This document shows, in pieces, positions 1 to 32,378 of a stretch of DNA of 36,193 bases. Origin of the DNA: Bacteriovoracia bacterium (GTDB lineage: Bacteria > Bdellovibrionota > Bacteriovoracia > Bacteriovoracales > Bacteriovoracaceae); NCBI GenBank assembly GCA_046570105.1, contig JBKHVI010000026.1, positions 1 to 36,193 of the forward strand. The letters are read 5' to 3'. The notes beneath the pieces are model-generated. The model had not been told where the DNA came from and made no database searches. It saw only the letters and a list, made by a program, of their open reading frames with translations. Numbering within the stretch: the stretch's first letter is position 1; each line of letters starts with the position of its first letter. The translations under genes were made by a program, and so were the position numbers.

Positions 1-312
1 GCTTTACGCCACAATGATTCTCCGACAAAAGATTCGGGCCTGCGCGCCCTCTGGCAGTTCATGACTCCCAGACTTAAAACCCAATTGCGTGATAAGGCCC
101 TGGTGAGACCGTTTCTAACAGATGATATTTGGGGAGCGTTGGTGGATTTTGATGATTACAAAATTACCCGCGAAAAAATTAACGAGAATGAGGCCAATTT
201 TGAGGTTTCGTTTATTTCCAAAAAACGCCTTGAGCGACGACTGATCGTGTCCTTACAGAAAAAAGAAGATCTGTGGTTGGTGGAAATGTTGGCGAAGAAA
301 TCACAACCCTAG
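1..312 (+). CDS. 3' part of a hypothetical protein, possibly DUF4864/NTF2-like (5' end outside the window)
   Basis: Frame 1 is open from base 1 (ALRHNDSPTKDSGLRALWQF-MTPRLK...) to TAG at 310-312. The 'L..ND.P..D.G....W.F..P' pattern and the C-terminal beta-strands ending 'W.V' resemble DUF4864 proteins. Confidence 0.45.
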   Translation, partial: ALRHNDSPTKDSGLRALWQFMTPRLKTQLRDKALVRPFLTDDIWGALVDFDDYKITREKINENEANFEVSFISKKRLERRLIVSLQKKEDLWLVEMLAKKSQP

Positions 313-326
313 CGAGAGCGATTTGT

Positions 327-1559
327 TTATTTGATCAATCGAAACACGATTGTGGTTTTCAAAAAGCTTAGACCAAAAGCCAATAAACTATAATTCAGTA
401 CCATGCTTTCTGAAGAGGAGAAGCGAATCAAAAATAGAAAGCTTAGTTTGATCGCTAGTTCAAAAAGCTCAAGATTTAACTGAAGACGTGATCTATTAAT
501 GAAGCGCAAAAAGTTGGTTGTAGGTGTGACAAAAAGAATACTCATGAAATAGGGAATGAGGTTTTTTACCATCGGAGCGGCTCCAAGCCATTTTTCTCCT
601 AGCACGGGGATGAAAAAATCAATCGTTCCCCAAATAATTATGCCAATCGCCGATGATATAAAAAGGGAGAAAACTACAATTTTGAGATAGAAATGTCTCA
701 AGTCTGAAGGATGATCTTTGAGTTCACTAAAACGCTGAATGGTTACGTTAAAAAGCGTTGAACCAACCATCTCCAAAGGGGCCTGAATAAGTCTTTGACC
801 GAGAGCGAAGAACCCCACGGTCGCTAGGCCGTAACTTCTTTCAAGAAAAAAAATAATGATATTATTCGATAAAGCCAAACAGAGATGGTGAGGGGTCACG
901 TAGAGAATATTATCGGAATGCTTTTTGAGAAATTTCAACCAACCGGAAGTTGCGTTTCTCAAATTAATTGAACGAAAATAGCTTTTAATATGTACAAAAC
1001 CACCGACGAAATCACCGATGATTCTTCCCGAAATTAGCCAACTAAAAGTGGGATTAATCCAACCACCGAGAAGTTGAAATATTAAAACAAACAAACTTTT
1101 ATAGATCACTGCCGCTGAAGATATTCTGAGCTCGTCGTATCGAAATGGAAGTTGTTTCGAATTAAAAAAGAAATTATAGCCCCAGCACCAAACCACAAAA
1201 GGAAAAAAGAAAGAGGTAATCTTTTGCGCAAAGCTCCATGGAAGAAAAAAACAGGCAAGACAGAAAAGTGTGCAGGCCAAACCTGATAAAATCGTCGACT
1301 GCAAAAAGACTGTCGCCGACTCATCTTTATCTGCTTGAATGATAGCTAAATCCAAGCGGAAGCTCAGTGTTCCAGCGATGATTGAAATGAGTGCCGTGAG
1401 AGTTCCCAAAAGGCCTAGGTCCTCAGGCGTAAAATAGGCGGTTATGACGAAGGAAGTTACGAAAGTGATAAGTTGAGACATCATAGTCCCGACAAAGACG
1501 ACCTTTGACCTATTGATTAATTTCGACTGAAAGACTTTCTCAATGAAATTTCCACGCAT
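327..1559 (-). CDS. wzx: Wzx-like polysaccharide flippase (MATE/Polysacc_synt family)
   Basis: 410 aa with about 10-12 hydrophobic segments. It has the N-terminal 'GTMMSQLITF...FTPEDLG...SFRLDLAI' and mid-protein 'YGLATVGFFALGQRLIQAP' flippase patterns, and it sits in a glycan cluster. Confidence 0.85.
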   Translation of the reverse strand: MRGNFIEKVFQSKLINRSKVVFVGTMMSQLITFVTSFVITAYFTPEDLGLLGTLTALISIIAGTLSFRLDLAIIQADKDESATVFLQSTILSGLACTLFCLACFFLPWSFAQKITSFFFPFVVWCWGYNFFFNSKQLPFRYDELRISSAAVIYKSLFVLIFQLLGGWINPTFSWLISGRIIGDFVGGFVHIKSYFRSINLRNATSGWLKFLKKHSDNILYVTPHHLCLALSNNIIIFFLERSYGLATVGFFALGQRLIQAPLEMVGSTLFNVTIQRFSELKDHPSDLRHFYLKIVVFSLFISSAIGIIIWGTIDFFIPVLGEKWLGAAPMVKNLIPYFMSILFVTPTTNFLRFINRSRLQLNLELFELAIKLSFLFLIRFSSSESMVLNYSLLAFGLSFLKTTIVFRLIK

Positions 1560-6947: not shown

Positions 6948-7991
6948 TTACGATTTGATTTTGCGGGTCGCTAACAACCACATCGTAAAAGCTGTGGGGA
7001 TCAACAGAAGCACTGCGATCTGAAGTTCACCGCGAATACCTTGTGCGTAATAAGCTGCCACAATCATCAATGTATTAAACACCACAAGTATCGCCGTTGA
7101 TTGCATGTGGGTTAGCCCACGATCCACTAATAAGTGATGTATGTGACTACGGTCGGCACTAAACGGTGATTTTTTATTTAGCATACGAACAAGGAACACT
7201 CTGAGCGTGTCATACAGTGGCACAATCAAAACCGAGAGCGTAAAAACTGGTACCGTGAGAATTTTATGCGGATGAGAGCGCGGCAGGATGCGGATACTAT
7301 CGATGAACTTAATCGCCAGAATGGCAATAATTAGTCCTACAAGCATCGAGCCGGTATCCCCCATAAAAATTTTTGCCGGGGAGCGATTAAACCAAAGAAA
7401 CCCAAGTAGCGCACCGATCAAAGCAAAACTCAGAATCGCATACTGAGTCATGCCTAAGGCATAGTACCAACTGCCAAAAGTCGCAGCTCCCACTATTCCT
7501 AATGAGGCCGCCAATCCATCGATGCCATCAATCAGATTGAAAGCATTCGTGATGACAATAATTGTGAAGACACTAAAGAAATAACTCACGGGCAGCGACA
7601 TCGTCTTAAGACCAAAAAGCCCATAAAAAGTGGTGAGCTTAATGCCTGCCAAGTGAACAAGAATCACAGCGGCTAAAATTTGACCGGCGAGCTTCTTCCA
7701 GGCCCTGAGATCAATCAGATCATCTTTGATCCCAAGAAAGAACAAAATCAAAAGAGCGCAGATAATATATTGAAGCTCGACGATCTCGGCTTGATTGGTC
7801 CAAAACGTTACAGAAAATAATAGGCCCGCAAAAATCGCCATTCCGCCTAGAGTCGGTACACTTTTTTTGTGGTGCTTGCGCTCACCAGGAACATCAAAGA
7901 GCGACTTCAGTTCGGCCACACGGATGATGCTAGGGATAGCAAACATTGTGACGATGAGGGCCGTTAAAAGACTGAGGATGTAATTTAGCAT
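6948..7991 (-). CDS. wecA: Undecaprenyl-phosphate HexNAc-1-phosphate transferase (WecA/MraY family), probable initiating transferase
   Basis: RKHH..VPTLGG, G..DD, NAFNLIDGIDGL, FN..PAKIFMGDTGS, DRSHIHH; multi-TM. ATG 7991 is preferred over the track's TTG 8021. Confidence 0.88.
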   Translation of the reverse strand: MLNYILSLLTALIVTMFAIPSIIRVAELKSLFDVPGERKHHKKSVPTLGGMAIFAGLLFSVTFWTNQAEIVELQYIICALLILFFLGIKDDLIDLRAWKKLAGQILAAVILVHLAGIKLTTFYGLFGLKTMSLPVSYFFSVFTIIVITNAFNLIDGIDGLAASLGIVGAATFGSWYYALGMTQYAILSFALIGALLGFLWFNRSPAKIFMGDTGSMLVGLIIAILAIKFIDSIRILPRSHPHKILTVPVFTLSVLIVPLYDTLRVFLVRMLNKKSPFSADRSHIHHLLVDRGLTHMQSTAILVVFNTLMIVAAYYAQGIRGELQIAVLLLIPTAFTMWLLATRKIKS

Positions 7992-8007
7992 GTGAGGTAA
8001 AATAGCA
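7992..8007 (-). promoter_or_regulatory. Candidate extended -10 (TGcTATTTT) 7 nt upstream of the wecA ATG; possibly leaderless
   Basis: Minus strand reads TGC-TATTTT-acctcac-ATG, with no Shine-Dalgarno. Confidence 0.35.
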
Positions 8008-8088
8008 TTTTTCAGGGTCAAGCGAGTAGTAATAGTTTAAACATAATGCTACGCCTCAATAAAAATCGCACAATGATACTTTCTGTCA

Positions 8089-8130: not shown

Positions 8131-9303
8131 TTATACCAAGTTATCGTTGAGGGACTGCCATATTTCTGAGAATGAAATTGTCTTCGCATTAGCAAATTTT
8201 GGGCCTTCAATAGGTGAGAGGATCCACTTTTCTTTAATACGAATTCCTAAACTATCTAGCACCTTCAATTGCTGCTGGGTAAAATCCTGTGGCTTCGCCT
8301 TCACTTCAGCTGCGATATAAACTTGGTTGGGGAGTTGAATTAAAAAATCAATCTCAACTTGATCTTTTGTCCTTATGAAATAAATCTGTGCTGACTCTCC
8401 GCGATTAGAGAAAAATCGAATGATTTCTCCTAAGGCCATATTTTCTAGCAGATGCCCAAAAGCTGGCGACACTTGTAATGGGCCATAGTCATTCCACCCC
8501 TGCAACCTCGCAGCGAGGGCCACATCTAAAAAATAATATTTTGGTGTTTTGATCAAGCGCTGATTAAGGTTAGAAGCATAGGGCATCAATGAAAAAACAA
8601 TCGCGTTTTCTTCTAATAACCTTAACCACGATTGTACCGTGAGAACCTCAACACCTACGTTTCTCGCAATGTCAGAAGCATTAAATAATTGTCCCACTCT
8701 GCCCGCAGTCAGTTGAAGACACTTACTAAACGCTGCTGTCTTTTCAATGCCTGCCGCTGAAACAATATCTTTCTCTATGAAAGTTGCAATTAAATCATTC
8801 AAGTAGCGGACAGGATTGAGCTCTGGTTTTATATGTAACTCCGGCCATCCACCTCTCATCATGTAAACGCTCAGGTCGATTGAATTAAGTTCATGCAGAG
8901 AGAGTGTATTAAGATCAAAATAACTCGCTCGACCGGCCAAAGATTCTCGTACATCTCGTTGCAAGAGAGTTTGATTAGAGCCCGTAATCCAAATATCTAA
9001 TTTTTTATTTGTAGAACTGCGTCGTTCTTGATCTAGCCGACGCTTGAGTTCAGGAAAAATCTCTGGTGACAAGCTGGCCTCGTCCAAAACGAGGGGCCCA
9101 GATAACTGATCAAAAAATAGTTTTGGATTTTCTTGGGCAAACTGACGCACCGATAGGTCATCAAAATATATCATCTGATACTTTTGAAGTTTCGCCAGCA
9201 AAGATGTTTTACCACATTGACGAGGTCCCTTAAGAACCTTAATTGGCAGCAACTCTTCCTGGCCCTGAGTAAAATATTCTAAAAAATCTCTATGATACCA
9301 CAT
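8131..9303 (-). CDS. AAA_14 ATPase with DUF4143 and C-terminal PD-(D/E)xK-like nuclease motif
   Basis: Walker A GPRQCGKT, Walker B LVLDE, ITGS, ESLAGR, GGWPE, KTPKYYFLD, GHLLEN, EIDF...AEVK. Confidence 0.88.
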   Translation of the reverse strand: MWYHRDFLEYFTQGQEELLPIKVLKGPRQCGKTSLLAKLQKYQMIYFDDLSVRQFAQENPKLFFDQLSGPLVLDEASLSPEIFPELKRRLDQERRSSTNKKLDIWITGSNQTLLQRDVRESLAGRASYFDLNTLSLHELNSIDLSVYMMRGGWPELHIKPELNPVRYLNDLIATFIEKDIVSAAGIEKTAAFSKCLQLTAGRVGQLFNASDIARNVGVEVLTVQSWLRLLEENAIVFSLMPYASNLNQRLIKTPKYYFLDVALAARLQGWNDYGPLQVSPAFGHLLENMALGEIIRFFSNRGESAQIYFIRTKDQVEIDFLIQLPNQVYIAAEVKAKPQDFTQQQLKVLDSLGIRIKEKWILSPIEGPKFANAKTISFSEIWQSLNDNLV

Positions 9304-9431: not shown

Positions 9432-10589
9432 ATGGAATATTTCTGGGAAAAATCTAGTTGGGAAGCAACAGATCCGCACCTTAAAAAGATGCGAGACATG
9501 CCTTTTAAGCGCGAATTCCCGTTTATTCCCGAGAAAGAGGGCCTCTACATCATTCGCGGTCCTCGCCAGGTGGGTAAAAGCTCCTGGCTCAAAACTGTGC
9601 TTCAGCATTATGCCTCTCGTGAGAAATGCTTTTACTTGAGTTGCGAAAATATCCAGGATCATCGAGAACTCGCAGAAATCTTGGCGAGTGTTCGTCACTG
9701 TAAGATTGTTCTTTTAGATGAAGTGAGCTTCGTTAAAGATTGGGATCGCGCCGTGAAGCATGAAGTTGATTCGGGCCATACTCATATCCTCATGCTCACC
9801 GGTTCACATGCTCATGACTTAAAAAAAGGCTCAGACCAAATGCCTGGCCGCTTTGGTGCAGGCGGAGAATTCCATCTTCTCCCCATGACATTTGATGAGT
9901 TTTTTGAAGCAAGACTGCAAGCAGGCTGGGCCAGTGATGACCGAGTTCAAGAACTAGAAGCGTATTTTAGAGTAGGAGGATTTCCTACCGCCGTTGCTGA
10001 GGCAGGAATTGATGCTCAATTCCCCCACATGGCAATGGAAACATATTGGAAGTGGCTCAAAGGCGATATTATTAAGCTCGGCAAACAAGAAGTATTTCTC
10101 ACTGAAATCCTCATTCAACTGGCCACGACACTGACCACTCCCATCAGCTTCCAGACTCTTGCGAAAAAAACGACGATTGGCTCGCATAACACTATTCAAG
10201 AATACATCTCAGTTCTTGAATCATGTTTTGCTGTCAAAATTCTTTATGCCATCGATATCGACTCAGGCTCCTATCGTTTTAAAAAAGATCGCAAACTCTA
10301 TTTTACCGATCCTCTTATTTTTTGGATTGCCCATAAATTAAGCGGAAAAAAAGTAAACAATGATTATCTTCCAAAAATTGCCGAAATGGTCGCTCATGAA
10401 GAATTAAGTCGTGCCAACCAACGCTTTGGCTACTTCAGTAATACTCATGGTGAAGTAGACTTTTTGCTGCCAAATGAATGGGCGGTTGAAGCTAAATGGA
10501 GTGACTCAGCTCAAAATCTATCAAAATCTTATCTCAACTTGAAAATGCTTAATAAGAAAGTTTGGACGAAGAGAAATTTTTTGCTGTAG
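9432..10589 (+). CDS. AAA_14 ATPase with DUF4143 and C-terminal PD-(D/E)xK-like nuclease motif (second, divergent subtype)
   Basis: Walker A GPRQVGKS, Walker B VLLDE, LTGS, PGR, GGFP, RKLYFTDP, EVDF...VEAKW. Confidence 0.87.
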   Translation: MEYFWEKSSWEATDPHLKKMRDMPFKREFPFIPEKEGLYIIRGPRQVGKSSWLKTVLQHYASREKCFYLSCENIQDHRELAEILASVRHCKIVLLDEVSFVKDWDRAVKHEVDSGHTHILMLTGSHAHDLKKGSDQMPGRFGAGGEFHLLPMTFDEFFEARLQAGWASDDRVQELEAYFRVGGFPTAVAEAGIDAQFPHMAMETYWKWLKGDIIKLGKQEVFLTEILIQLATTLTTPISFQTLAKKTTIGSHNTIQEYISVLESCFAVKILYAIDIDSGSYRFKKDRKLYFTDPLIFWIAHKLSGKKVNNDYLPKIAEMVAHEELSRANQRFGYFSNTHGEVDFLLPNEWAVEAKWSDSAQNLSKSYLNLKMLNKKVWTKRNFLL

Positions 10590-10690: not shown

Positions 10691-13600
10691 TTAGGTGTGC
10701 GAGTGGGCATGAGACGGCCCCAAAGTAGCTGACACCTTTTGGGTGAAAAGTGAGTCATAAACGGCCAGAAGCTTCTGCTCCACAATCTCACTAGAGAACT
10801 CAACGCGTACCATTTGGTAGGAAGCCTCGCCAAAGCGCTCTCGTAAATCTCGATCTAAAAGTAATTTTTCAAGTGCCTCAGCTAATTTTTGAGCATCAAG
10901 TGGTGGTACTAGAAACCCATTACCTTTTATCACTTCGCGGCAACCTGGAACATCAGTCGTCACCAGAGGTCTGCCGGTCGCTGCGGCTTCTAGCATCGTG
11001 AGTGGAAGACCTTCGCCGTAATTACTTGGGAGACAGACAATATCGGCTTCTTGATAAAACTTGGGCATGTCACTCTGACGACCCATCCACTGTAAAAGTC
11101 CTTTGCTTTCCCATTCCTTGATCACTTTTGGATTTGCACTCTCCGGATTAAGACTATCCGGCTCACCGACGACGACGAGATTAAAAGGAATATTTCGCGC
11201 ACGAAGAATTTCTGCGGCCTTAACGAGCTCTCTAATTCCCTTGCTCCATAACAATCTACCGACATAGAGAATGGTAGGGATTTCGGTTTGAGGCAAAGGC
11301 TTCTTGCTAAATTTCTGCATATCAACGCCTGAGCCGCGAATCAAAACAGTTTTTTCAGCATCTACTAATTTGTGATCGAGAAAGTATTTTCGATTATCAG
11401 GATTCTGAAAAATGACTCTGATGCCAGGCAAGGCCAAGGCATTTCGATACATCATTACGGCAGCAAAATGAACAAGCTCTCCCTTAAATCCTTTCCTCGA
11501 AAAAGCGTAACCTAAACCATTTACAAGATTCACAATGCGCTTGAGACCTACAATTGTTCCAGCGGTTGAGCCGTAGATAACAGGTTTAATGGAAACATTG
11601 TGCAAAATATCCGGACGAAGCTTCGCGAGAAGAAAAATCAATTTTATAAATGAACCAAAATCAGCAATCGGATTAAGTCCCCCTCGATTCAAATCAAGTC
11701 GATGGTGGATAAATCCATAACTCATCAACTTTTCCACATGGCCAGTGTCGCTTGATAAAACATGAACCTCATATCCACCCTTAAGTGCAGCTTTTGCCAT
11801 CACTAAGCGCTGAACAATAAAAGTTATATCGTCTGGCACCAGGAAGACGAGACGCTTCTTACTGCGATTCATTTCTGGCGGATCAACCCACATTAATAAT
11901 CGGCCTGGCCATGTCAGTCGCGAGCTAGCCCATAGTGCGGAGAAGCCTGCTAATTTAATTAATAACAGAAATGGAAAGCGATAACGATTGATCGCACCGA
12001 TGTTGGGTACGGAGTATCCCAGAGCTATCAAGAAAGGGAGAGCGATAAACAGGCAAATGAGAACTTCAGCTCTCAAAATATTTCGACCGGACAGAATTAA
12101 AAAGAGAAGTAAGAAGTAGAACAAACCCATTTCTAATTGCAGAGCAAAGAAGACGATACCCCTGGCTAAGCCATCATCCCATTTCGAATGCCAAGGACCC
12201 GGCTCAACAAACGCCAGTTGCATGGCCCTGGGAAAGAATGACAAAGCCTCCCAGGAACTATTGATTCTATGCTCCGGCATGAAATTGGTATCGCCATGAG
12301 ATCTCTGAAATAAAAATCTCTCACGCGTATAGATCATGCGCTGAAACGGAACATCTAAAATTCGTGGTCCACCAAACCCTTCCCAAGTGGCCGCAGCTGC
12401 TTGATGCCTTGGCAATTCTGCCACTTGGTCTGTCGGCAACTTTGTTTGATTGGCGTTTTCAACACCTACACCGTAATTTTTCCCAAAATGAGAAACGGCC
12501 AACAATGAAATGAGTACTGTTAGGAAAAGCGAAGCTGTTCCCATGCGAGCCAATGTAGTTTTTTGTCTTAAAATCCCAAAGGGCATTCCCAGCAGAACTC
12601 CAGCGGCCATGATCTGAGCAAAATAAGACTTATCACCTAGAAACAGCCAAAGACCAAGGGCCACTGCCAGAATATGTCTAAAGCGAGGACGTCTGACTGA
12701 AGAAGCGAGCATTACCCATACGAGCATCAAGATACCAGGAATAATAAAGGCATCTTTGTGGGGATAAATCATCCAAGAAAATGAAGTCGGCGTGACAGTG
12801 AAAATCACGGCAATCATCAAAGGCCACCAGCGCCCTCTGACACCCAAGATATCAAGTATCGCTGCTTGCAGACGAATCGTGAGACCCGCAAGAGCTGCTA
12901 ACACCGGCAGAAACATAAACGGACGCTCGATGCCTGTTACACGATAGATGAAAGACATGATCCGACTAGCTACATGAGTCGAGGCACTCCACCAATCGCG
13001 CCAACTTAAATCCGCCAACTCCATCGCCCAACGATGATAGCTATGAGGGTCATCTAAGAACAAAGTCATTCCATCGCGGAATTTCTCCGGGAAGAATTCT
13101 GGCAATATTAAATGGAAAATTAATCCAGCAATAAGAACAAAATAAAATCCTACCCAAAATGGAGAGAAGACCCAGCGGGCGGCTTCTTCAATTGGCTTTC
13201 TACCCTCCTCAGCGATCCGTACATATTTCTCAGCGAGTGAATCATAAGTATGATGAGCTTCAAGATACTTTCTTCCAAGTGCTCCCATTTGTGCTAACTG
13301 AGACTGAGATTTTGCCTTTAGCTCTAAAATGGCATTCGCGATATCTTCTGGCTTACAACTCGGAACTGACAGGCCCGCTTGAGCATGGCCAACAATGTCA
13401 TCTTCAGTATCAATCGCCATCACAATGGGCTTTGAAGCTGCGAGATAATCAAACAATTTATTAGGTGAGATTCCATGCTTAAAAAGAGGGCTCTTCATAA
13501 GTCCGATATAACAAACATGAGCATGACTCAATATCGCCGGGATATGTTTTTTAGCAACAGAATCGAGCACTGAAACATTTCCAAGACCTGCTGCTTTCTC

Positions 13601-14419
13601 TTCCAGCTTCCTTTTGTGAGGGCCGTCACCTACTAATACAAAATGTAAACCAACCACATCTTTTAAAAGCTTGGCCGCATCTAGCAGTTGATCAAGGTTA
13701 TTCGCTATCCCTAAACTTCCGGTATAGATAACTGTGAAATTCTTTGATGCAATTTCTGCAACCTGTCGTGAAACATTATTCTCAATAACCTCTAATGACT
13801 CTAACGCCACTCCATTAGGGATATAAGAAAACTTAGCAGCTAGCATTCCACGAGACTCAAAGTGACGATTCGCAAGTGCCAATACCGAAACCACTCGATC
13901 ACTGGCCAAATAAGCAAGTCGCTCAAAGAATTTCAAAAGAACAATAACTGGATGAAACCGACTCACGCCTCCGAGCTTTTCAATTGTAAGTGGCCAAATA
14001 TCTCGCACTTCGTAGACTAACGTTTTGCCAAACCAGCGCGACCAAAGCCATCCATTTATAATTGGCACATGGGGAGGACCAGAAACGATTATAGTATCTG
14101 GCTTTGATAGTCGCCAAAAAGGGAAAAAGAGCAGCAAAAATGGAAACAAGAATATTGAAAACAATCTTCCAAGACTTCTAGATTGTGTATAACGGGGCAT
14201 CCTAACCCACCAATACTCAATTCCATCGATCATTTCACGAGTAAATAGACTTTTGGTTTCTGGATGTTTTGTGAAGTTATGAAAATATGACGATGAGATG
14301 ATGATCGCGCGATGCCCTTGATTCACCCATTCCTTAGCAATATAATAATTGCGATAAACCATCCCATGATAGGGAGATCCCGCCGTTTGATTAATAATCC
14401 AGAAGGTTTTTGAACTCAT
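10691..14419 (-). CDS. Three-domain fusion: GT4 (WbuB-like) + ~10-TM Wzy/GT-C-like membrane domain + GT4 (CapM-like)
   Basis: Uninterrupted 1242-aa ORF. aa ~1-405 has YEVRDIWP, YTGSLG.AN and SPNKLFDY. aa ~415-830 is hydrophobic, with DDPHSY, PHKD and NIGAINRYR. aa ~854-1230 has IKPVIYG, FQNPD, GSGVD, GRLLWSKG, EGLP..MLEA and TTDVPGCRE. Confidence 0.85.
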   Translation of the reverse strand: MSSKTFWIINQTAGSPYHGMVYRNYYIAKEWVNQGHRAIIISSSYFHNFTKHPETKSLFTREMIDGIEYWWVRMPRYTQSRSLGRLFSIFLFPFLLLFFPFWRLSKPDTIIVSGPPHVPIINGWLWSRWFGKTLVYEVRDIWPLTIEKLGGVSRFHPVIVLLKFFERLAYLASDRVVSVLALANRHFESRGMLAAKFSYIPNGVALESLEVIENNVSRQVAEIASKNFTVIYTGSLGIANNLDQLLDAAKLLKDVVGLHFVLVGDGPHKRKLEEKAAGLGNVSVLDSVAKKHIPAILSHAHVCYIGLMKSPLFKHGISPNKLFDYLAASKPIVMAIDTEDDIVGHAQAGLSVPSCKPEDIANAILELKAKSQSQLAQMGALGRKYLEAHHTYDSLAEKYVRIAEEGRKPIEEAARWVFSPFWVGFYFVLIAGLIFHLILPEFFPEKFRDGMTLFLDDPHSYHRWAMELADLSWRDWWSASTHVASRIMSFIYRVTGIERPFMFLPVLAALAGLTIRLQAAILDILGVRGRWWPLMIAVIFTVTPTSFSWMIYPHKDAFIIPGILMLVWVMLASSVRRPRFRHILAVALGLWLFLGDKSYFAQIMAAGVLLGMPFGILRQKTTLARMGTASLFLTVLISLLAVSHFGKNYGVGVENANQTKLPTDQVAELPRHQAAAATWEGFGGPRILDVPFQRMIYTRERFLFQRSHGDTNFMPEHRINSSWEALSFFPRAMQLAFVEPGPWHSKWDDGLARGIVFFALQLEMGLFYFLLLFLILSGRNILRAEVLICLFIALPFLIALGYSVPNIGAINRYRFPFLLLIKLAGFSALWASSRLTWPGRLLMWVDPPEMNRSKKRLVFLVPDDITFIVQRLVMAKAALKGGYEVHVLSSDTGHVEKLMSYGFIHHRLDLNRGGLNPIADFGSFIKLIFLLAKLRPDILHNVSIKPVIYGSTAGTIVGLKRIVNLVNGLGYAFSRKGFKGELVHFAAVMMYRNALALPGIRVIFQNPDNRKYFLDHKLVDAEKTVLIRGSGVDMQKFSKKPLPQTEIPTILYVGRLLWSKGIRELVKAAEILRARNIPFNLVVVGEPDSLNPESANPKVIKEWESKGLLQWMGRQSDMPKFYQEADIVCLPSNYGEGLPLTMLEAAATGRPLVTTDVPGCREVIKGNGFLVPPLDAQKLAEALEKLLLDRDLRERFGEASYQMVRVEFSSEIVEQKLLAVYDSLFTQKVSATLGPSHAHSHT
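10717..10743. repeat. Direct repeat copy 2 (GCCCCAAAGTAGCTG-aCACCTTTTGGG), inside the 3' end of the fusion gene
   Basis: Matches 8089-8114. It forms a CCCAAA...TTTGGG mini-hairpin and encodes TQKVSATLG of the fusion tail. Confidence 0.8.
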
Positions 14420-14426
14420 GAAGGGC

Positions 14427-15488
14427 TTAGACTAACATGGCCTCAACGATCTTTTCACCCGCTTTCCCGTTACCATAGAGAGCTTCTGGAAATTTAACTC
14501 CCGAATGCTTGAAGGCCTTTACCGCAGAGACGATAGCATCCGTCTCTGTACCCACAACCATATTTACTCCCGTCTCAACTAACTCGACCCACTCAGTCTC
14601 GTTTCTAAAAGTAACGCATGGCTTCTGGCTTAAGTAGGCCTCTTTCTGAAGGCCTCCGCTGTCAGTCAGTACAATTGAGCACCCCTTGAGAAGCTGCAGC
14701 ATGTCGTAGTAGCCCACAGGATCGATAATATTAATCTTGGGATTTAATCCGAGGTCTTTTAACTTTCCCTTCGTTCTTGGATGAAGTGGCAAATACACAG
14801 GTGTTTCAATGTTCACGATCTCAAGAGCACTGATGATCTTTTTTAAGCGGACAGGATCATCGGTATTTTCCGCCCGATGAAGAGTTGCAAGAGTGTAAGG
14901 TTGAGCCGGTGGGGTTTTAAAAAGCTTTGCCTCTACACACGCGATCTTTTGGTAGTAATAGAGGGCATCCGCCATGACGTCACCCGTGCGAATTACTCCC
15001 TTAGTCACTCCTTCATTCTGCAAATTTTTTACTGCAGCATCGCTCGGGCAAAAGAGCAAAGTCGAGACCCGATCAGTAAGAATGCGATTAATTTCTTCTG
15101 GCATTTTCATATTAAACGACCGTAGGCCCGCCTCAACGTGAGCGACAGGAATATGGAGCTTCGCTGCTGCCAGGGCCCCGGCCAAAGTTGAATTAGTATC
15201 ACCATAGACCAAAACCCAATTCGGTTTTTCCTTTAGGAGTACTTCCTCAATTTTCTCTAGCATGCGGCCTGTCATAGCACCATGGCTCAAGCCCGCAACT
15301 CCTAAATTATAATCTGGTTTAGGAATTCGCATTTCGTCAAAGAATACATCACTCATCGAGGCATCATGATGCTGACCTGTATGAATCAGAACCTCTTGAA
15401 TATTGCTTTTTGCTTTAAATGCACGTGAAACGACGGCGGCTTTAATGAACTGTGGTCTTGCGCCGATAATAGTTACAATCTTCTTCAT
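14427..15488 (-). CDS. wecB: Non-hydrolysing UDP-N-acetylhexosamine 2-epimerase (WecB/WbpI family)
   Basis: GARPQFIK, HTGQH, YGDTNST, HVEAGLRS, PEEINR, TLHRAEN, TDSGGLQKEA. Confidence 0.9.
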   Translation of the reverse strand: MKKIVTIIGARPQFIKAAVVSRAFKAKSNIQEVLIHTGQHHDASMSDVFFDEMRIPKPDYNLGVAGLSHGAMTGRMLEKIEEVLLKEKPNWVLVYGDTNSTLAGALAAAKLHIPVAHVEAGLRSFNMKMPEEINRILTDRVSTLLFCPSDAAVKNLQNEGVTKGVIRTGDVMADALYYYQKIACVEAKLFKTPPAQPYTLATLHRAENTDDPVRLKKIISALEIVNIETPVYLPLHPRTKGKLKDLGLNPKINIIDPVGYYDMLQLLKGCSIVLTDSGGLQKEAYLSQKPCVTFRNETEWVELVETGVNMVVGTETDAIVSAVKAFKHSGVKFPEALYGNGKAGEKIVEAMLV

Positions 15489-15525
15489 AGTGTTCAGCTT
15501 AATCTGCGCCCCACTTCTTTAGCAA
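15489..15525 (-). promoter_or_regulatory. Candidate internal promoter TTGCTA-N18-TAAGCT-N7-ATG for wecB and the fusion gene
   Basis: -35 at 15520-15525 and -10 at 15496-15501 on the minus strand, with no Shine-Dalgarno. Confidence 0.35.
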
Positions 15526-16490
15526 CTTTTTGAGACATCCGAATAGACTGATAGAATTTTATTTGTTGCTGTGACGGATGATAAACTAATGAGATTGGCA
15601 TGCCCCCTAGGTCTGTCTTTTAAAATTTTCCTCGCGCTTGCTAAAAAAGAATCTTCGTCACCTAAAGCGACACAGGTAGAACATTTATCCAATTTCAAAA
15701 CTTGCAAAACATCACCTACTTCATGAGCAACAACTGGTACGCCAAGCGCTAAAGCCTCTTTTACCACGTTAGGAGAACCCTCCCGCTCGCTTGTCATAAA
15801 CACGACATCTGAGGCTCCCATCATTTTGCAAGCTAATTCTGGAGAAGTTTCGCCTCTTAAAACGATAAAATTTAGATTATGAAATTGTTTCTTTAACTCA
15901 GAAAAATAATATTCAGCTAAATCTAAACGCTTATTTAAAGGCTCTTTACCAGCATTAAAATAAATATAAAGTGCATTTTTTTTCCATCCTAACTCTTCAC
16001 GAATTCCGTCTACAGATGCTTTTTGATACAAATTTAAGTCAACGCCACTTGGAATAACAACAGCCTTAGATGATTGAAATATTTTTTTTGCCTGATGATC
16101 AGAAACGAGAATGATTTTTTTAGCGATTACAGTAGAGAATTGGGATAAAAAAACTGAAATATTCCTCCGAAAGAAATTGCCGCCTCTGGGACTCGGATCG
16201 ATATCACTCCCACGTAAATTCATCACCAAGGGTACAGATGGTATCATGGCCCCTAAAAATGAAGTCACTGTTCCGTATTGGGCATGAATTAAGTTTGGTC
16301 GAAACTTAAAGCACAGAATTAGCAAGTTTATATAATCTTGCATTAAACTAAATGGATTTAAGCGAGATTTAATGAAATAGATTTCTGCTTCAACATATTG
16401 TGACAAATCGTTTACTTGGCGTTTAGCAAACACCATGCTTACGGGGTCAATTTCAGAACCTGGAATTAGGTAAACAATGCGATCTTTCAT
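15519..16490 (-). CDS. Glycosyltransferase family 4
   Basis: IHAQYG, RGSD, IPSGVD, KR, and S.REGSPNVVKEALA (EX7E motif). Confidence 0.88.
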   Translation of the reverse strand: MKDRIVYLIPGSEIDPVSMVFAKRQVNDLSQYVEAEIYFIKSRLNPFSLMQDYINLLILCFKFRPNLIHAQYGTVTSFLGAMIPSVPLVMNLRGSDIDPSPRGGNFFRRNISVFLSQFSTVIAKKIILVSDHQAKKIFQSSKAVVIPSGVDLNLYQKASVDGIREELGWKKNALYIYFNAGKEPLNKRLDLAEYYFSELKKQFHNLNFIVLRGETSPELACKMMGASDVVFMTSEREGSPNVVKEALALGVPVVAHEVGDVLQVLKLDKCSTCVALGDEDSFLASARKILKDRPRGHANLISLSSVTATNKILSVYSDVSKSC

Positions 16491-16492
16491 TC

Positions 16493-18316
16493 TTATTCCC
16501 AGAGTCTTGGGATTCCATTAACCACCTTAATTACTTCTTTAAAATCCATATTCAACGCATCCAGATACCAACGAATATTTGGATAGCGTGGCTGGTTTTC
16601 TTCTTCGATCAACCTTAAGGCTTCTTCTCTGGAAATTTCGCCCTCACGGATTTGATTGCTTCTGAATGTATCATGCTCAGTAAAGCCAGCGACTGTGTAA
16701 TAAACGTAATTGTAAAATCCAGCAGTACCGTCTCCGATTCTCCAGGTAGTTTTTGTATCTATGGCCCTTTCCCAATCATAAGTGTTGAACAAAGTATCCT
16801 CAATAATATTTTCATCCCACTTCCAGTAATCAAAGACATGAAAGTAATCATCCTTCTTTGTGAAACTTCTGTAGTATTCACCCGATAAAGTATCCCAAAG
16901 GGATCTGTTAAAATAACCAGGGCTTTCTAGCATCGCCCTAAATCTCTTGCTGTGATAATTTAATTGTTTTCTGAATCCATTCGCGTAGACCATTTTCTCC
17001 TCAAAGTCCGGCTTCACTCCTAAAAAGCCTGCTTTAAAGTGCGTCACTTCCAGTGGGTTTACTCCCCACAAATTTAAATTAATACCTGTCTGCTTTTTGA
17101 TGGACTCTACATATTTAAAAAAATGTTTATCACCAGCAGTAAGAATACTAATCATCCCTAAGTTAGGAGCTTTTAACCAGGCTGATAAATTCATCGCAAT
17201 ATTTTTGCGTTTTTTAGAAATATCATCCGCGACAACGATGTTTTCGACGCCTAACTGTGAGCACATTCTGCTGATGTTTCGTCTGCCTAAATCTGTAACC
17301 ATTCCCCAGTCGTAGGTATAGGTCACAGGCTTCATTTTTAGTTCATTTGTAATCAAATGAAGTGCGTAGCAACTATCTCGGCCGCCAGAAAATGGAACAA
17401 TACAGTCGAGTTCAGTCCCCGCCTTCCTATACTTTTCAACAAGATTGAATAGTTGTTCCTTGGGTTTTGGACGATTTCTCATTTTATAATTTCTACAAAA
17501 ATTACAAATTCCAAACGTATCAAATTGGATGTGAGGCATCGTCTCAGGCAAGATACATCTTGTGCACCTTCTTAAGGTGAATTTTTTATAAGTGAGTAAA
17601 TCCTCTTCCGTCTTATTAAACTGAAGAGATGGAATCAAATTCTCATTTCTCGAACGAAAGTCACTTACTGCAAATGCTGTTTGAGAAGCCGGTACATCAA
17701 AGACTACACCCTCTTTAACTTGCTTAATATTTTTACAAGAAATTAACTCGAGAGCATATTTCTCGGACGCGAAATAGCTCCCATTTGAGTTTTCCCCGAT
17801 GTAGAGACTCCCATTATTTGAAAATAGAATCAGCTTCCCATGCTTTGGTATTAAAAGAGCACAAGCAACAACGCCCTTACATAGAGATATAATTCTTGAA
17901 CTCAGCGATGAATCAACAGGGTGGCCCTCTGCTAAATAATCTAGAGCGATGCCAGCAATAACTTCCGAGTCTATTTTTTGATTACGTTGAACTTTTAACT
18001 TTTCCCAGAGATCATCGTCGTTAACAACAATCCCGTTGTGAACCAAAATGATATCCTCTTTTACGACTGGCTGATTATCTTCCAGCCCATTCGTGATTAA
18101 ACGACTGTGACCAAAGATGAATTCCGAATCATAAGGCTTTATTTTTGCCATTAACTTTTCAATTCTATAATCGGCTCTATCAACTAGGTATTGATCATTA
18201 AAAAAGCGAACAAGACCACTAGAGTCCATTCCTCTTTGCTCTGAATGTTTTGAGATGGTATCGATGTCCTCGTTAGACAATCGATTGGCCACAATTCGTC
18301 CAAAAATCCCGCACAT
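16493..18316 (-). CDS. Class II (Ntn) glutamine amidotransferase fused to a WbuX/WbpG-type PP-loop N-acetyl-sugar amidotransferase
   Basis: Start re-assigned to MCGIFG (ATG 18316, AGGGG upstream). Glutaminase motifs RGMDSSG, GHSR, NQP, HNG and DSE are followed by CTRC...CNFC and SGGRDS. Confidence 0.85.
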   Translation of the reverse strand: MCGIFGRIVANRLSNEDIDTISKHSEQRGMDSSGLVRFFNDQYLVDRADYRIEKLMAKIKPYDSEFIFGHSRLITNGLEDNQPVVKEDIILVHNGIVVNDDDLWEKLKVQRNQKIDSEVIAGIALDYLAEGHPVDSSLSSRIISLCKGVVACALLIPKHGKLILFSNNGSLYIGENSNGSYFASEKYALELISCKNIKQVKEGVVFDVPASQTAFAVSDFRSRNENLIPSLQFNKTEEDLLTYKKFTLRRCTRCILPETMPHIQFDTFGICNFCRNYKMRNRPKPKEQLFNLVEKYRKAGTELDCIVPFSGGRDSCYALHLITNELKMKPVTYTYDWGMVTDLGRRNISRMCSQLGVENIVVADDISKKRKNIAMNLSAWLKAPNLGMISILTAGDKHFFKYVESIKKQTGINLNLWGVNPLEVTHFKAGFLGVKPDFEEKMVYANGFRKQLNYHSKRFRAMLESPGYFNRSLWDTLSGEYYRSFTKKDDYFHVFDYWKWDENIIEDTLFNTYDWERAIDTKTTWRIGDGTAGFYNYVYYTVAGFTEHDTFRSNQIREGEISREEALRLIEEENQPRYPNIRWYLDALNMDFKEVIKVVNGIPRLWE

Positions 18317-18389
18317 AACAACCCCTAGCACCTTCACTATTTACAGGCATATAGGCAATCTCGTACCATCACTCAGTGAGGGTATAACT

Positions 18390-19481
18390 GTGAAAATTGC
18401 CTATATTATTGATATCAGCAAAGACGGTAAAAGTATTGGCGTTTTGAAGAAAATTGACGCGCAGATTAGCGAATGGAGAAGACAAGGTCATGATGTTCAA
18501 GAAATTTATACCTCTGACTTCTATCCGAGCCTCGAATATAACCTGCGTTTTTTCCCTAAGAAATTCGCTTCATTTTTAAAAGTTTACATTAACAGCTACG
18601 CTCTACGACAATTTCTAAGAAATAAAACCTACGACGTGGTCTATGCGAGGGCTTTGATTTTCAGCCCTTTTCTCCGTTTTTTAAAAGCATTCAATTTCAT
18701 AATGGAGCTGAACGCCAATGAGCTTGATGAATACAAGAAAACCACTATCCCCCTCTACATCTACTCGCTCTTAACGCGCAAACTCGCATTCTCTTTACCC
18801 CGAGGTTTTGTCGCAGTAAGTAATGAGATCAACGCATATTACTCTGAATTCAAAAAGCCATCCGTTGTTATTGCTAACGCATGTCCTAATTTAATTGTTC
18901 AGCGAACGCACCAGCAAAACAAAAGACCGATTATTGGATTTATTGGAGCAAAAAAATATATTTGGAATGGTAATGAGAAGGTCTTAAAGCTTGCAGAACA
19001 ATTTCCACAGTATGATTTTGAGATTATCGGTTTTGACTTAGACGATTGTCCACCCAACGTTAAAACGCATGGCTTTTTAAAGGAAGAGGACTCTATTGAA
19101 ATCATGAAAAGATGGAATGCTGCAATCTCCACTCTTTCACTCTATGAACAAGGACTGACTGAAGCGAGTCCATTAAAGTCCCGACTATACCTTGCCATGA
19201 ACATACCATTTATCTACGCCTATGATGATACCGACGAGCCCTTCTCGCATTGTCTAAAAATCCCTAACTCTCCAAATAATGTTGATTCAAGTCTAGAGAA
19301 GATTGCTGATTTTTTCCAAACGACTTTCTCACATAGCTCAATACAAGTTAATCATCAGTGCCATTTAAATTTAAAAGAAAAAAAACGTTTAGATTTTATG
19401 GCGAGCACAATTGCTCAAAAATCTTCCAATCCTCATAAGTCGAAAGCAGACTATTATGCCAAAGAAATAAACTCACCTTGA
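18390..19481 (+). CDS. Glycosyltransferase, GT4-like (GT-B)
   Basis: Start re-assigned to GTG 18390 (GAGGG upstream). Motifs GVLKKI..QI..W, ELN, IGFIG...WNG and ASPLKSR.YLA...P. Confidence 0.75.
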   Translation: MKIAYIIDISKDGKSIGVLKKIDAQISEWRRQGHDVQEIYTSDFYPSLEYNLRFFPKKFASFLKVYINSYALRQFLRNKTYDVVYARALIFSPFLRFLKAFNFIMELNANELDEYKKTTIPLYIYSLLTRKLAFSLPRGFVAVSNEINAYYSEFKKPSVVIANACPNLIVQRTHQQNKRPIIGFIGAKKYIWNGNEKVLKLAEQFPQYDFEIIGFDLDDCPPNVKTHGFLKEEDSIEIMKRWNAAISTLSLYEQGLTEASPLKSRLYLAMNIPFIYAYDDTDEPFSHCLKIPNSPNNVDSSLEKIADFFQTTFSHSSIQVNHQCHLNLKEKKRLDFMASTIAQKSSNPHKSKADYYAKEINSP

Positions 19482-21926: not shown

Positions 21927-23150
21927 TTAGTCGTCAAGGCCTGCGCCCCAAACATTATGTCTTAACTTCCATTGATCAGCGCTATCCTTGCCCCAAAGAT
22001 GAGGAGAACGGAATTGATCACATAGCTCATGAAATCTTTCAGGCTTGAGCTCTAGATAGTCCATGACTTCATTAAAGTATTTATCTGGAAACTCTCCATC
22101 AAATTTCTTAACCAGTGCTACACCCTCTTCACGAGTGATGTGCTTATTGCGAATCTCTTGAGAAGCATCGTATGTGGCACGGCCAATGCCAAATTTAATA
22201 TAAGTTGTGTAGTAATGAAGATCATCAATCTTATCATCGATACTGTTGTATTTACTGTACGTACCTTGGGTTCGGAACGGGCGGGCCTTAAAGCCCGTAT
22301 TATCGACGGCGTAATAATAAACTTCTTGCGGTGTCCATTTAAGGTAATAACCTAAGTAGTGAACTTCAATATTTGTTCGTGCCATCTCGTCAGCAGGTAA
22401 CGGCAAGAATGAAGCAAGATCCCCTTCTTTCAATCCATACTTTTCTTTTAATTCTTTAACTGAAACGCCACCCAGATAAATTTCATCCAAGTTTTTAAAA
22501 CTATAGTATGACTTATCTCTAAGTGATGTTGTGTTATCTGCTATGGGATTTCCATATTCCGCCTCATTCTCTCCGTAAAAGATTAGCGGGATACCAAACT
22601 TAGCAGCTAACTTGGGGCCAAGATTTTTTTGCCCCAAAATGAAAGTTTGAAATGGATGCATAAGGTTCTCAATCGACAAGCGAGTAAGAAGCTTCATAAC
22701 TTTTCCATTACGAGTGAAAGTTAGATTATCAAAGCCACTATCAACCCAGTTCTTCCAATTCTTGTAACCGTATTCAGTATAGAGAATAGGTGGCCAAGTC
22801 ACTGTTAACGGATTCATTCCGTATTTATATTTCAACACATGAGCTTGATAAGCACTGTCTTTACCGCCACTGCCAGGAACTAAGCAGTCATAAGAGCCAT
22901 CTTTGCTTCTATGTTTGTCGAGTAGCTGAAGCAATTGTTCTTCGCGAGCTTTCCAATCAATGGATTCTTTTTGCTCAGCTGTGCGACAAGCATCACACAC
23001 GCCAGAGCTATCGATTTTCATGGTGGTTTTTTTACTTTCAATTGTATGTTTAAACTCGATCGCTGAAGCAGGACGCTGATTAGACATCACACAACGAGAA
23101 CAGAAGCTTACATTCTCCGGTAAACCGTATTTAACTTCAAACTTGCCCAC
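21927..23150 (-). CDS. N-acetyl sugar amidotransferase (WbuX/PseA-like)
   Basis: CSRC...CDAC, PP-loop SGGKDS, YGEN.AEYG, KFGIGRA. Adjacent to hisH/hisF paralogues; GTG start. Confidence 0.9.
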   Translation of the reverse strand: MGKFEVKYGLPENVSFCSRCVMSNQRPASAIEFKHTIESKKTTMKIDSSGVCDACRTAEQKESIDWKAREEQLLQLLDKHRSKDGSYDCLVPGSGGKDSAYQAHVLKYKYGMNPLTVTWPPILYTEYGYKNWKNWVDSGFDNLTFTRNGKVMKLLTRLSIENLMHPFQTFILGQKNLGPKLAAKFGIPLIFYGENEAEYGNPIADNTTSLRDKSYYSFKNLDEIYLGGVSVKELKEKYGLKEGDLASFLPLPADEMARTNIEVHYLGYYLKWTPQEVYYYAVDNTGFKARPFRTQGTYSKYNSIDDKIDDLHYYTTYIKFGIGRATYDASQEIRNKHITREEGVALVKKFDGEFPDKYFNEVMDYLELKPERFHELCDQFRSPHLWGKDSADQWKLRHNVWGAGLDD

Positions 23151-23151
23151 G

Positions 23152-23790
23152 CTAGATTCCTTGTTGAATTTTCTTTAACCAATTTTTATAAATGTGCAAT
23201 CCTGCCGCAGCGCTCTTTTCTGGATGAAATTGAAAAGCCCAAATATTGTCTTTAACGACCGATGAAGTGTACCTAACACCCCCATATTCAGTCCAGGTCA
23301 ACTCAACAGAAGCATCTGTTGGAACAACATAGTAGCTATGAACGTAATACATATCTGACTTATCTTCGATTCCATCTAATGCAATGTGTTTTTTGGCAAA
23401 ATTTGTCGTTGACCACCCCATATGAGGTATCCGCACACCTTTTGGGATGAAATCGGCAGGAAACTTAACTACTTTCCCCGAGACCAAACCTAGCCCTTTG
23501 TGTGATCCAAATTCTTCGCTCTCGTCAAACAGCAACTGCAATCCAAGACAAATTCCCAATAAAGGCTTATCCGCCCTAACCCAATCCTTAATTACGGTAT
23601 CAAGTCCCTGCGTCTTAAGCTCTGACATTGCTTGCCCAAAAGCTCCGACACCCGGCAAAACAAGGCCCATGATTCCATCAGTGTCGGCCAGGGACTTAAC
23701 CAGTTTTGTTTCAAAGCCCTCGGACTTGAATGCCTGCATGACACTAAAAATATTTCCAAGTCCAAAATCGATAATACCAACGACCTTCAT
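23152..23790 (-). CDS. HisH-like class I glutamine amidotransferase subunit (WbuY-like, LPS paralogue)
   Basis: PGVGAF, GICLG, PHMGW, VHSY, QFHPEKS; catalytic triad intact. Confidence 0.92.
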   Translation of the reverse strand: MKVVGIIDFGLGNIFSVMQAFKSEGFETKLVKSLADTDGIMGLVLPGVGAFGQAMSELKTQGLDTVIKDWVRADKPLLGICLGLQLLFDESEEFGSHKGLGLVSGKVVKFPADFIPKGVRIPHMGWSTTNFAKKHIALDGIEDKSDMYYVHSYYVVPTDASVELTWTEYGGVRYTSSVVKDNIWAFQFHPEKSAAAGLHIYKNWLKKIQQGI

Positions 23791-24641
23791 ACAAGTGTCC
23801 TTACGGGAAATCCTGCAGCTAATATTCCAGCTTTAATTTCAGCCAAGCTAATTGGTGTAATTTTGGCGAAAGATCGATTCTCTGATAAAAATCTAGTATT
23901 ACCCTCTTCTCGTTTCTGGTCTCGACTAACTTTGCCATTTGCCAACGCTTGGTAGTGTAAAACTGATGCAATGGCTACCGCATCAGCACCTGCCTTGTAG
24001 CCGGCAACAACATCACTTATCTTTCCAACCCCACCATGAGCAACAACAGGAACAGGAACTTTGCGACTAATTAAGTTTATTAAATCTAAATCGAGCCCTT
24101 CTCCAGTTCCCTCTCGGTCAACCGAAGTGATGACAAGTTCACCAACTCCTATGTGAACAAGTTTTTGGGCCCACTCCAATACTTCAAGGCCAGTTTCTTC
24201 CCGTCCGTTATCGACGACTGCAAAGTATTTACCATTTGATTGCTTAACACACTCGATTGCTGCAACGATGGTCGATGAGCCATAGCTCTCAGAAGCTTGG
24301 CGAATGAGTTCCGGTGATTTCACAGCTCCTGTATTGATGCAAACTTTGTCTGCTCCTGCACGAAGGGCTTGTTTTATATCGGCAAGACTTCGGATCCCAC
24401 CACCTACAGTGAGAGGAATAAAAATTTCCTTAGCTGTCTTACTCACAAGCTCAGTAAGGCCATTTCGTTCATAAAGACTTGCAACGACATCCATATAAAA
24501 AAGTTCGTCAATACCTTCGAGATAATACATCTTAGCGAATTCGGCAGGATCGCCCATGACCCTTAGGCCCTCAAGATGAATACCCTTCACAAGATTTGGG
24601 CCTTTAATATCTAGCCGTGCAATCACTCGTTTCTTCAACAT
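23787..24641 (-). CDS. HisF-like cyclase paralogue (WbuZ-like ammonia-channel subunit)
   Basis: ARLDIKG..LVKG, PLTVGGGIR, GADKV.IN, SVDREGT.EG.D. Confidence 0.9.
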   Translation of the reverse strand: MLKKRVIARLDIKGPNLVKGIHLEGLRVMGDPAEFAKMYYLEGIDELFYMDVVASLYERNGLTELVSKTAKEIFIPLTVGGGIRSLADIKQALRAGADKVCINTGAVKSPELIRQASESYGSSTIVAAIECVKQSNGKYFAVVDNGREETGLEVLEWAQKLVHIGVGELVITSVDREGTGEGLDLDLINLISRKVPVPVVAHGGVGKISDVVAGYKAGADAVAIASVLHYQALANGKVSRDQKREEGNTRFLSENRSFAKITPISLAEIKAGILAAGFPVRTLV

Positions 24642-31279: not shown

Positions 31280-31352
31280 AAAGCACCGCACAATAGAGAG
31301 TGAATGAAGTGATCATTTTTCCCACAAGTGCTGCCATTTCTCCAATCAAAAC

Positions 31353-32291: not shown

Positions 32292-32378
32292 TTTATTTCC
32301 TTTCATGAATCGAGGAGATTTACTTTACTCCGAGTATCGCGAAGAATAAAATTCTCCTCTGCTAATTCAAAGGTCTTT

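Follow-up and report, generated by a model that had tools for sequence, protein, structure and literature searches.

Polypeptides that join a cytoplasmic glycosyltransferase to a periplasm-facing one are already known. In particular, WadA of Brucella carries a cytoplasmic nucleotide-sugar glycosyltransferase (GT25) and a periplasm-facing GT-C-type O-antigen ligase (GT121) on one chain, as described in PMC9938171 and PMC10920833. Here we describe a conserved fusion of this general kind from predatory bacteria, a protein of 1242 amino acids (aa) in which two family 4 glycosyltransferase (GT4) domains flank a membrane domain that we call X, encoded in a 36,193-nucleotide stretch of DNA from a Bacteriovoracia bacterium (contig JBKHVI010000026.1 of assembly GCA_046570105.1; "the window" below is this whole stretch, contig C26 of genome G000, which is 88% complete). 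WadA has a single GT25 domain and a WaaL-type (GT-C_B) ligase, whereas the fusion has two GT4 domains, an X domain of predicted GT-C_A fold and a separate WaaL. X belongs to an unnamed family whose fusion partners vary freely, and we propose from its residues, sidedness and gene context, at about an even chance, that it polymerises undecaprenyl-pyrophosphate (Und-PP) linked repeat units on the periplasmic side.

Four other groups of described enzymes resemble parts of the fusion. ArnT (GT83), AglB/PglB/STT3 (GT66), PMT (GT39) and GT136 share the fold of X (Z 15-17, root-mean-square deviation [rmsd] 4.3-5 Å over about 290-340 residues), the acidic residue after the first helix and the acidic second loop; X differs from them in its 6-13% identity, 10 helices, lack of a WWD domain and own NxGxxxRxR motif, and none of them is known to carry GT4 domains. 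The Wzy polymerases (CAZy GT120 and GT122-GT135), as characterised in PMC10920833, are like X in lying in wzx/wecA/waaL or wza/wzc clusters and in their roughly 10 helices, conserved outer Arg/Lys and long late loop. X is unlike them in its GT-C_A fold, in having no PF14897, PF14296, PF04932 or WbbH match (CAZy hidden Markov models lie outside this comparison), in the lack of any co-polymerase found in the fusion genomes, and in being fused to GT4s or MurJ-like flippases. PglA (8dvz, 8dqd, 8dvw), which adds the second sugar to Und-PP-sugar, matches along the entire C-terminal GT4 (E 4e-42); it is a stand-alone enzyme that follows PglC, whereas the fused GT4 accompanies a WecA-like initiator. 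Finally, WpsI and WpsJ of Lactococcus are GT-C proteins that act on lipid-linked oligosaccharides after a Wzx-type flippase, WpsI in polymerisation and WpsJ in en-bloc transfer; by their description in PMC9574508, on which the likeness to X rests, they differ in being Gram-positive, separately encoded and undecaprenyl-phosphate-linked. Full-text searches, outside which most subscription papers lie, listed no paper on the GT4-X-GT4 architecture, the X family or a Wzy-Wzx fusion.

The fusion is real and conserved

The fusion and its parts lie as follows.

10691..14419, minus strand: GT4-membrane-GT4 fusion open reading frame (ORF), 1242 aa, a single stop-free frame
13205..14419, minus strand: N-terminal GT4, aa 1-405, a dispensable module; best NCBIfam match the WcaI family, below cut-off
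13250..13810, minus strand: C-lobe of the N-terminal GT4, aa 204-390, of which two types occur; donor-binding by GT-B convention
11921..13162, minus strand: membrane domain X, aa 420-833, 10 predicted helices, predicted GT-C_A fold, unnamed family
13049..13051, minus strand: D457, first outer loop, predicted catalytic Asp
12752..12760, minus strand: H554-K555-D556, second outer loop
11978..12004, minus strand: N806-x-G808-x-x-x-R812-x-R814, last outer loop
10745..11860, minus strand: C-terminal GT4, aa 854-1225, PglA-like, E-x7-E intact

A first-pass annotation of the window had read this ORF as a membrane domain with a GT4 at each end, and both Pfam (PF13579/PF13439 at aa 19-207, PF13477 at aa 859-992, and PF00534 with two stretches) and the homologues bear this out; aa 410-845 have no match in Pfam or NCBIfam. 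When aa 410-850 were searched against proteins 683-2174 aa long, 40 homologue clusters emerged, and 24 of them show the complete GT4-X-GT4 layout (X being 43-94% identical). The others are 12 X-GT4 proteins (one truncated), 2 GT4-X proteins (one truncated) and 2 fusions of X to a MurJ-like flippase. Two named loci come from Bacteriovoracaceae metagenome-assembled genomes, of which G008 shares the genus of G000. Among 237 Bacteriovoracaceae genomes 13 carry an X member, with an open frame of about 1250 aa in two (G000 and G008) and X-GT4 in three.

The 24 full-length clusters are open across both junctions, and thus the fusion is no assembly error. A contig from run X1 covers 10976-15600 with zero differences, being possibly the window's own source and so not independent, and a contig from run X4, about 90% alike, crosses the second junction; these contigs are in agreement with the ORF but contribute little. 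By eye, no Shine-Dalgarno-like internal start stood out at either junction. In an AlphaFold model of aa 1-1200 (pLDDT 85.8, a predicted score on the local distance difference test) there are three folded domains, and the low-confidence linker residues 410-414 and the predicted template modelling score (pTM) of 0.60 suggest no fixed packing among them.

Topology, conserved residues and fold of X

An AlphaFold2 model of aa 410-845, built on a 138-row alignment, has a mean pLDDT of 95.1 and a pTM of 0.93. From its helices we read 10 membrane segments (aa 420-442, 500-523, 532-551, 557-575, 581-595, 600-618, 624-645, 753-776, 784-803 and 815-833). With this assignment the four short inner loops contain 0.13-0.27 Lys+Arg per residue in 25 fused proteins and 0.14-0.19 in 112 stand-alone ones, and the outer loops 0.06-0.13. 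This predicts an N-in/C-in topology with both GT4 domains in the cytoplasm; on the outer side would lie the D457 loop, PHKD, DKSY, a 107-aa loop and NIGAINRYR. This agrees with the count by eye of about 10 helices in the first-pass annotation, an even number that put both GT4s in the cytoplasm and the first acidic loop, PHKD, a loop of about 100 aa and NIGAINRYR in the periplasm.

The conserved residues of X (D457, H462, K555, D556, K/R597, Y599, R699, R731, E763, N806, G808, R812 and R814) all fall on the predicted outer face, so the Asp, Lys and Arg residues singled out earlier are indeed conserved and, by the predicted topology, periplasm-facing. Position 457 is Asp in 112/112 stand-alone and 23/25 fused rows (Glu in the other two), position 556 is D/E in 137/137 rows, and G808 and R814 are unchanged in 138/138. 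D457 is the predicted catalytic Asp by analogy with GT-C_A enzymes, in which section 9 of PMC11127046 gives the first-loop Asp such a role. In the "DDxxSY" loop stressed before, D457, the aromatic residue at 461 and H462 are conserved, while the first Asp and the Ser are not. The X-GT4 gene of G194 (L009, 10400-10430 region) has ambiguous bases at its YPHKD motif, which is an assembly ambiguity.

The model predicts a GT-C_A fold like that of ArnT, AglB, PglB and PMT. Among 48,161 PDB representatives, a VIA search found ArnT (Z 17.2, rmsd 4.3, 289 aligned), AglB (Z 17.1) and PglB (Z 15.8); the 20 best chains (Z 8.7-17.2) are all GT-C-type, and unrelated chains have Z of 7 or less. Foldseek gave no match with E <0.001, its best rows all being STT3/PglB/DPY19, and its template modelling score for an FtsWIQLB chain was 0.22. 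Table 1 of PMC10920833 assigns ArnT/AglB/PglB-type enzymes to GT-C_A and WaaL, SEDS and one Wzy clan to GT-C_B; it lists no polymerase family in GT-C_A and two Wzy clans without a class. No WaaL, RodA or Wzy chain is among the VIA matches with Z ≥8, an absence that is no exclusion. The GT-C likeness noted in the first-pass annotation is supported for the fold, as GT-C_A; a likeness to Wzy or WaaL chains is not supported in the form in which it was put.

Profile comparisons place X apart from named families. The X profile had no match among PDB sequences at E up to 1; X has no Pfam match, including PF02516 (STT3), and PF04932 (WaaL/Wzy_C) is found in 0/103 X members. Neither X nor these 103 members matched PF14897 (EpsG) or PF14296, and 7 of the 103 matched PMT_2 weakly and none a Wzy family. 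The comparison with E. coli WbbH gave 0.6%, and hhalign to 12 WaaL-like proteins 0.8%.

The X family and its loci

At E up to 0.001 the X family comprises 448 representatives, and the majority of the 150 listed are stand-alone proteins of 400-560 aa; their source names are "hypothetical" or describe a fused partner only. A MurJ-like domain is present in 18 of 38 scanned members (28 of the longer ones and 10 of stand-alone size), three of these having an epimerase as well and two a GT2. A FastTree tree of 200 X domains groups the 40 GT4-fused rows on a single branch (support 99), with six stand-alone rows next to it. MurJ-fused X proteins (e.g., L101:5815-8679; P0082, P0101, P0130, P0159 and P0187), of which examples were drawn from loci L041-L117, some with an added epimerase or GT2, are scattered on the tree, and so may have been fused or split many times. 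In G371 three X paralogues occupy 7 kb beside an ATP-binding cassette (ABC) exporter (L174, G371:C74:25130-32110), and no Wzx was seen in the 20 kb covered.

Searches for an annotated or serotyped member reached none: tblastn of five X members against plasmids and one E. coli blastn gave no match, and the nearest ESM Atlas clusters, which are leads only, are hypothetical or have PMT_2/STT3 on <20% of members. Bordetella wlbJK was considered as a possible family member, and was dropped when no paper was found.

A set of 79 metagenome loci was found with a pattern from a 17-row subset, and is biased to the MurJ-linked clade; X is fused to a MurJ-like domain in 45 of them. The usual order, from labels checked on one representative of each gene, is X, GT4, initiating transferase, then PglD-, DegT- and PglF-like genes, and an initiating sugar transferase lies within four ORFs in 26 of the 46 loci with 3 kb downstream.

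A distant clade is homologous to X (hhalign 98.4%, E 1e-14, 248 columns, with the KD, R, E and NxGxxxRxR residues aligned); WaaL, Wzx and O-antigen-polymerase control profiles gave <1% and PMT_2 11%. Seven of its 12 loci (L182, L184-L188 and L199) have a Wzc-type kinase within about 5 kb, two others (L189 and L192) a Wza/SLBB gene alone, and no other polymerase match was found in the 12. Four contain a GT4 that shares 30-38% identity with the C-terminal one of the fusion, and in L184 the X homologue is followed by a MurJ-like flippase, the same order as in the X-MurJ fusions.

X as a candidate repeat-unit polymerase

The window's other genes of Und-PP repeat-unit synthesis and export are as follows.

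14427..15488, minus strand: wecB-type UDP-N-acetylglucosamine (UDP-GlcNAc) 2-epimerase, 7 bp upstream of the fusion; TIGR00236 above cut-off
6948..8021, minus strand: WecA-like initiating transferase (PF00953)
327..1559, minus strand: Wzx-type flippase (PF13440)
1..312, plus strand: 3' portion of a gene that the contig end interrupts, the 5' portion lying at the start of contig C35

The epimerase gene also adjoins the fusion in G008, and wecA directly follows it in G008, G002 and G233. One gene is split between the starts of C26 and C35, half on each, and in G002 it precedes waaL. The only PF04932 match above cut-off in G000 is such a waaL (C35, 1422-2615), and waaL also closes the cluster in G008, G002 and G194. 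Because a canonical waaL lies across the contig break, next to the cluster, O-antigen ligation is already covered. The first-pass statement that the window has no stand-alone waaL is thus accurate within the window and does not extend past its end. That annotation had also suggested a one-protein machine that builds and polymerises the glycan; the cluster encodes at least five further glycosyltransferase-like proteins besides WecA and Wzx, and flipping requires that the substrate first leave the fusion, so this proposal fails. Of the coupling it envisaged, the link to the Und-PP repeat-unit pathway stands, ligation would fall to the separate WaaL, and polymerisation is suggested by gene context.

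Several lines of evidence favour polymerisation of Und-PP repeat units by X. First, the fusion clusters of G000, G008, G002 and G194 all have wzx, wecA and waaL, and no other Wzy-like ORF was found in any of the four, nor were PF14897 or PF14296 found in these genomes. Second, the homologous clade lies near Wzc in 7/12 loci with no other polymerase match, and the GT4s like the fusion's C-terminal one in four of the 12 loci and the gene order of L184 point the same way. Third, of six Bacteriovoracaceae clusters without X (G013, G014, G022, G024, G026 and G005), one has a PF14296 Wzy over cut-off and two more a Wzy-like ORF by eye. Fourth, initiating sugar transferases lie close downstream of X in the metagenome loci.

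In the pathway that we propose, WecA transfers N-acetylhexosamine phosphate to undecaprenyl phosphate, as is established for its family. The second sugar is likely the work of the C-terminal PglA-like GT4, and later sugars that of the N-terminal GT4 and other cluster transferases. Wzx flips the unit, as established for this pathway. X would then join units, with D457 as base and K555, K597, R699, R731, R812 and R814 holding the pyrophosphates, roles suggested by conservation and sidedness. Attachment of the chain to lipid A-core would fall to the separate WaaL. The six conserved outer basic residues would fit pyrophosphate-linked substrates by analogy with the polymerases covered in PMC10920833. 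The flippase acts in between, so direct hand-over between the fused domains is unlikely; the fusion likely tethers the GT4s at the membrane and ensures that the polymerase and the enzyme making the sugars that it recognises are inherited together. The account in PMC10920833 places the strongest constraint on polymerases at two points, the sugars adjoining Und-PP and those at the acceptor end, and this would explain why X travels and fuses with a second-sugar transferase.

Several observations weigh against polymerisation by X. Contig ends truncate three of the four fusion clusters, two 6-helix ORFs in the G008 cluster are of no assigned class, and Pfam often fails to recognise Wzy genes. Every one of the 20 fold matches with Z ≥8 is a non-Wzy GT-C enzyme, and, as above, the CAZy scheme in PMC10920833 assigns no polymerase family to GT-C_A. 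The Wzc-linked clade is one set of kin rather than independent cases, and is distant from the fusion; no Wzc match was found in G000 or the 79 metagenome loci. No Wzz (PF02706) was found in G000 or five relatives, and neither co-polymerase, Wzz or Wzc, in G000, G008 (99% complete), G002 or G194. In addition, X paralogues share a cluster in G371 (three), G036, L057 and L103; Wzy-like ORFs (by eye) lie near an X gene in L036, L083, L044, L082, L059 and L086; and nine X-MurJ fusion loci have a second, Wzx-type flippase.

If X does polymerise, it would fill the missing-wzy slot in hundreds of clusters and would be an undescribed polymerase type, with an oligosaccharyltransferase fold carrying out chain growth. 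Recognition of Wzy polymerases is difficult, and the CAZy scheme as given in PMC10920833 has none in its GT-C_A class. The natural fusions to flippases and GT4s provide single-gene constructs for studying coordinated unit assembly, flipping and linking, and for glyco-engineering.

Alternative roles for X

The absence of Wzz, the nine loci with two flippases, the several X paralogues per cluster and the six loci with Wzy-like neighbours would also be expected if X transferred a lipid-linked oligosaccharide en bloc onto another glycan, so as to branch or cap the O-chain or core in the manner of WpsJ, and the GT-C_A fold is that of ArnT/AglB-like branch transferases as presented in PMC9574508. 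We consider this unlikely, though likelier than the other alternatives, since no second backbone pathway or second initiator was seen in the fusion clusters and the Wzc-linked clade has no other polymerase candidate.

It is rather improbable that X is a minimal PglB/PMT-like oligosaccharyltransferase that moves the Und-PP glycan onto proteins. The top fold matches include AglB, PglB and STT3, no STT3 was found in five genomes, the STT3 profile found nothing in the four fusion genomes, the C-terminal GT4 is PglA-like, and ABC exporters with a weak PglK match adjoin X in L098 and L106. The order X-GT4-sugar transferase-PglD-DegT-PglF also resembles that of the pgl locus, which is pglB-pglA-pglC-pglD-pglE-pglF, but the same cassette ends many O-antigen clusters. 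The GT4s that follow X in 39 metagenome loci are only 23-39% identical to the fusion's C-terminal GT4 (one at E <1e-30), which weakens an exact pglB-pglA parallel. The WWD-x-G motif occurs in 0/187 X members, and the tail after the last X motif, a median of 30 aa in the 122 members shorter than 700 aa, leaves no STT3 periplasmic domain; the Wzc linkage of the homologous clade likewise argues against protein glycosylation. If X glycosylates proteins or ligates blocks, it is still an uncharacterised GT-C family.

Addition of single sugars from an undecaprenyl-phosphate-sugar donor, as in three-component systems (GtrABC, ArnT and GT136), is very doubtful. In its favour, ArnT heads the VIA matches, such systems are served by MATE-type flippases according to PMC11127046, and one GT2-X-MurJ fusion exists (P0082), but the partners of X are GT4s and pyrophosphate-forming initiators, the window's GT2 has no membrane anchor, and no GtrA-sized multi-helix ORF was found in the 79 loci or the window, although such genes may sit elsewhere and MATE-type flippases can substitute for them. 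Last, that X is a non-catalytic anchor or the fusion an assembly artefact is scarcely credible, and the artefact version largely refuted, since in spite of the low-confidence linkers, the lack of fixed packing and the many neighbours to which the family fuses, catalytic-type residues are kept in the fused clade, 24 independent clusters are full length, and the 40 GT4-fused rows form one well-supported branch.

The GT4 domains

Both terminal domains have the two Rossmann lobes of GT-B enzymes, with GT4 profile matches in each. The first-pass annotation had called them WbuB-like and CapM-like (CDD subfamilies cd03794 and cd03808); the nearest matches among the families compared here are WcaI, below cut-off, for the N-terminal GT4 and PglA for the C-terminal one. 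The motifs EGLPLTMLE (E-x7-E, C-terminal GT4) and PNKLFDY (N-terminal GT4), C-lobe motifs of the donor-binding type in GT4 enzymes, are kept in the 25 compared rows. The best solved relative of the C-terminal GT4 is PglA 8dvz, the next unrelated match having an E of 6e-14; the N-terminal GT4 had no PDB match, and is absent from 11 apparently complete X-GT4 proteins and a truncated one. Forms with and without it are interleaved on the X tree, and thus X plus the C-terminal GT4 is the stable core. In G014 we note a 715-aa GT4-GT4 tandem fusion (L121:9328-11475) in a wecA/wzx cluster without X.

The C-lobe of the N-terminal GT4 is mosaic. P0004 and the window protein are 93% identical in X and 45% in this lobe, and the P0004 lobe is 68-70% identical to those of P0012, P0016 and P0023, whose X domains are only 46-51% identical. 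The P0004 type is shared by 7 of 25 rows and requires six changes on the X tree; the group is defined by the lobe itself, so that only this scatter counts. Exchange of the lobe between lineages by recombination is the simplest reading, and as a guess it may have switched the donor.

More broadly, X may found a widespread polymerase family on the PglB/ArnT (GT-C_A) fold that has repeatedly been fused to a flippase or GT4s and had its donor lobe swapped, a reading to which we give somewhat less than an even chance. The MurJ fusion would then be a one-chain Wzy-Wzx, the GT4 fusion its Bacteriovoracaceae form, and the lobe swap a change in surface glycan.

Other features of the clusters

Two divergent genes for AAA_14 + DUF4143 ATPases (8131-9303, minus strand, and 9432-10589, plus strand) lie between the fusion and wecA in the window; fusion and wecA are adjacent in G008 and G002, and thus the pair looks like an insertion. 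Two small ORFs (96 and 121 aa; G000:C35:426-1078) between the split gene and waaL are absent there in G002, and by eye resemble a toxin-antitoxin pair.

The region 21927-31291 contains genes for a WbuX amidotransferase (TIGR03573) and HisH/HisF-like proteins, with a similar block in G194 and G008, and by eye it seems also to carry a legionaminic-acid pathway. Opposite-strand genes interrupt the co-oriented run at 1643-2713, 18255-19481, 31353-34389 and other places, and likewise in the related clusters L008, L009 and L026, as if single genes had been inverted in place. Finally, copies of the last 31 bases of the window (about 36160-36193) lie close to the ends of contigs C17 and C23. By eye, the ORF that ends C17 is transposase-like, and the break in the cluster at the window's right end is therefore probably due to a repeat.

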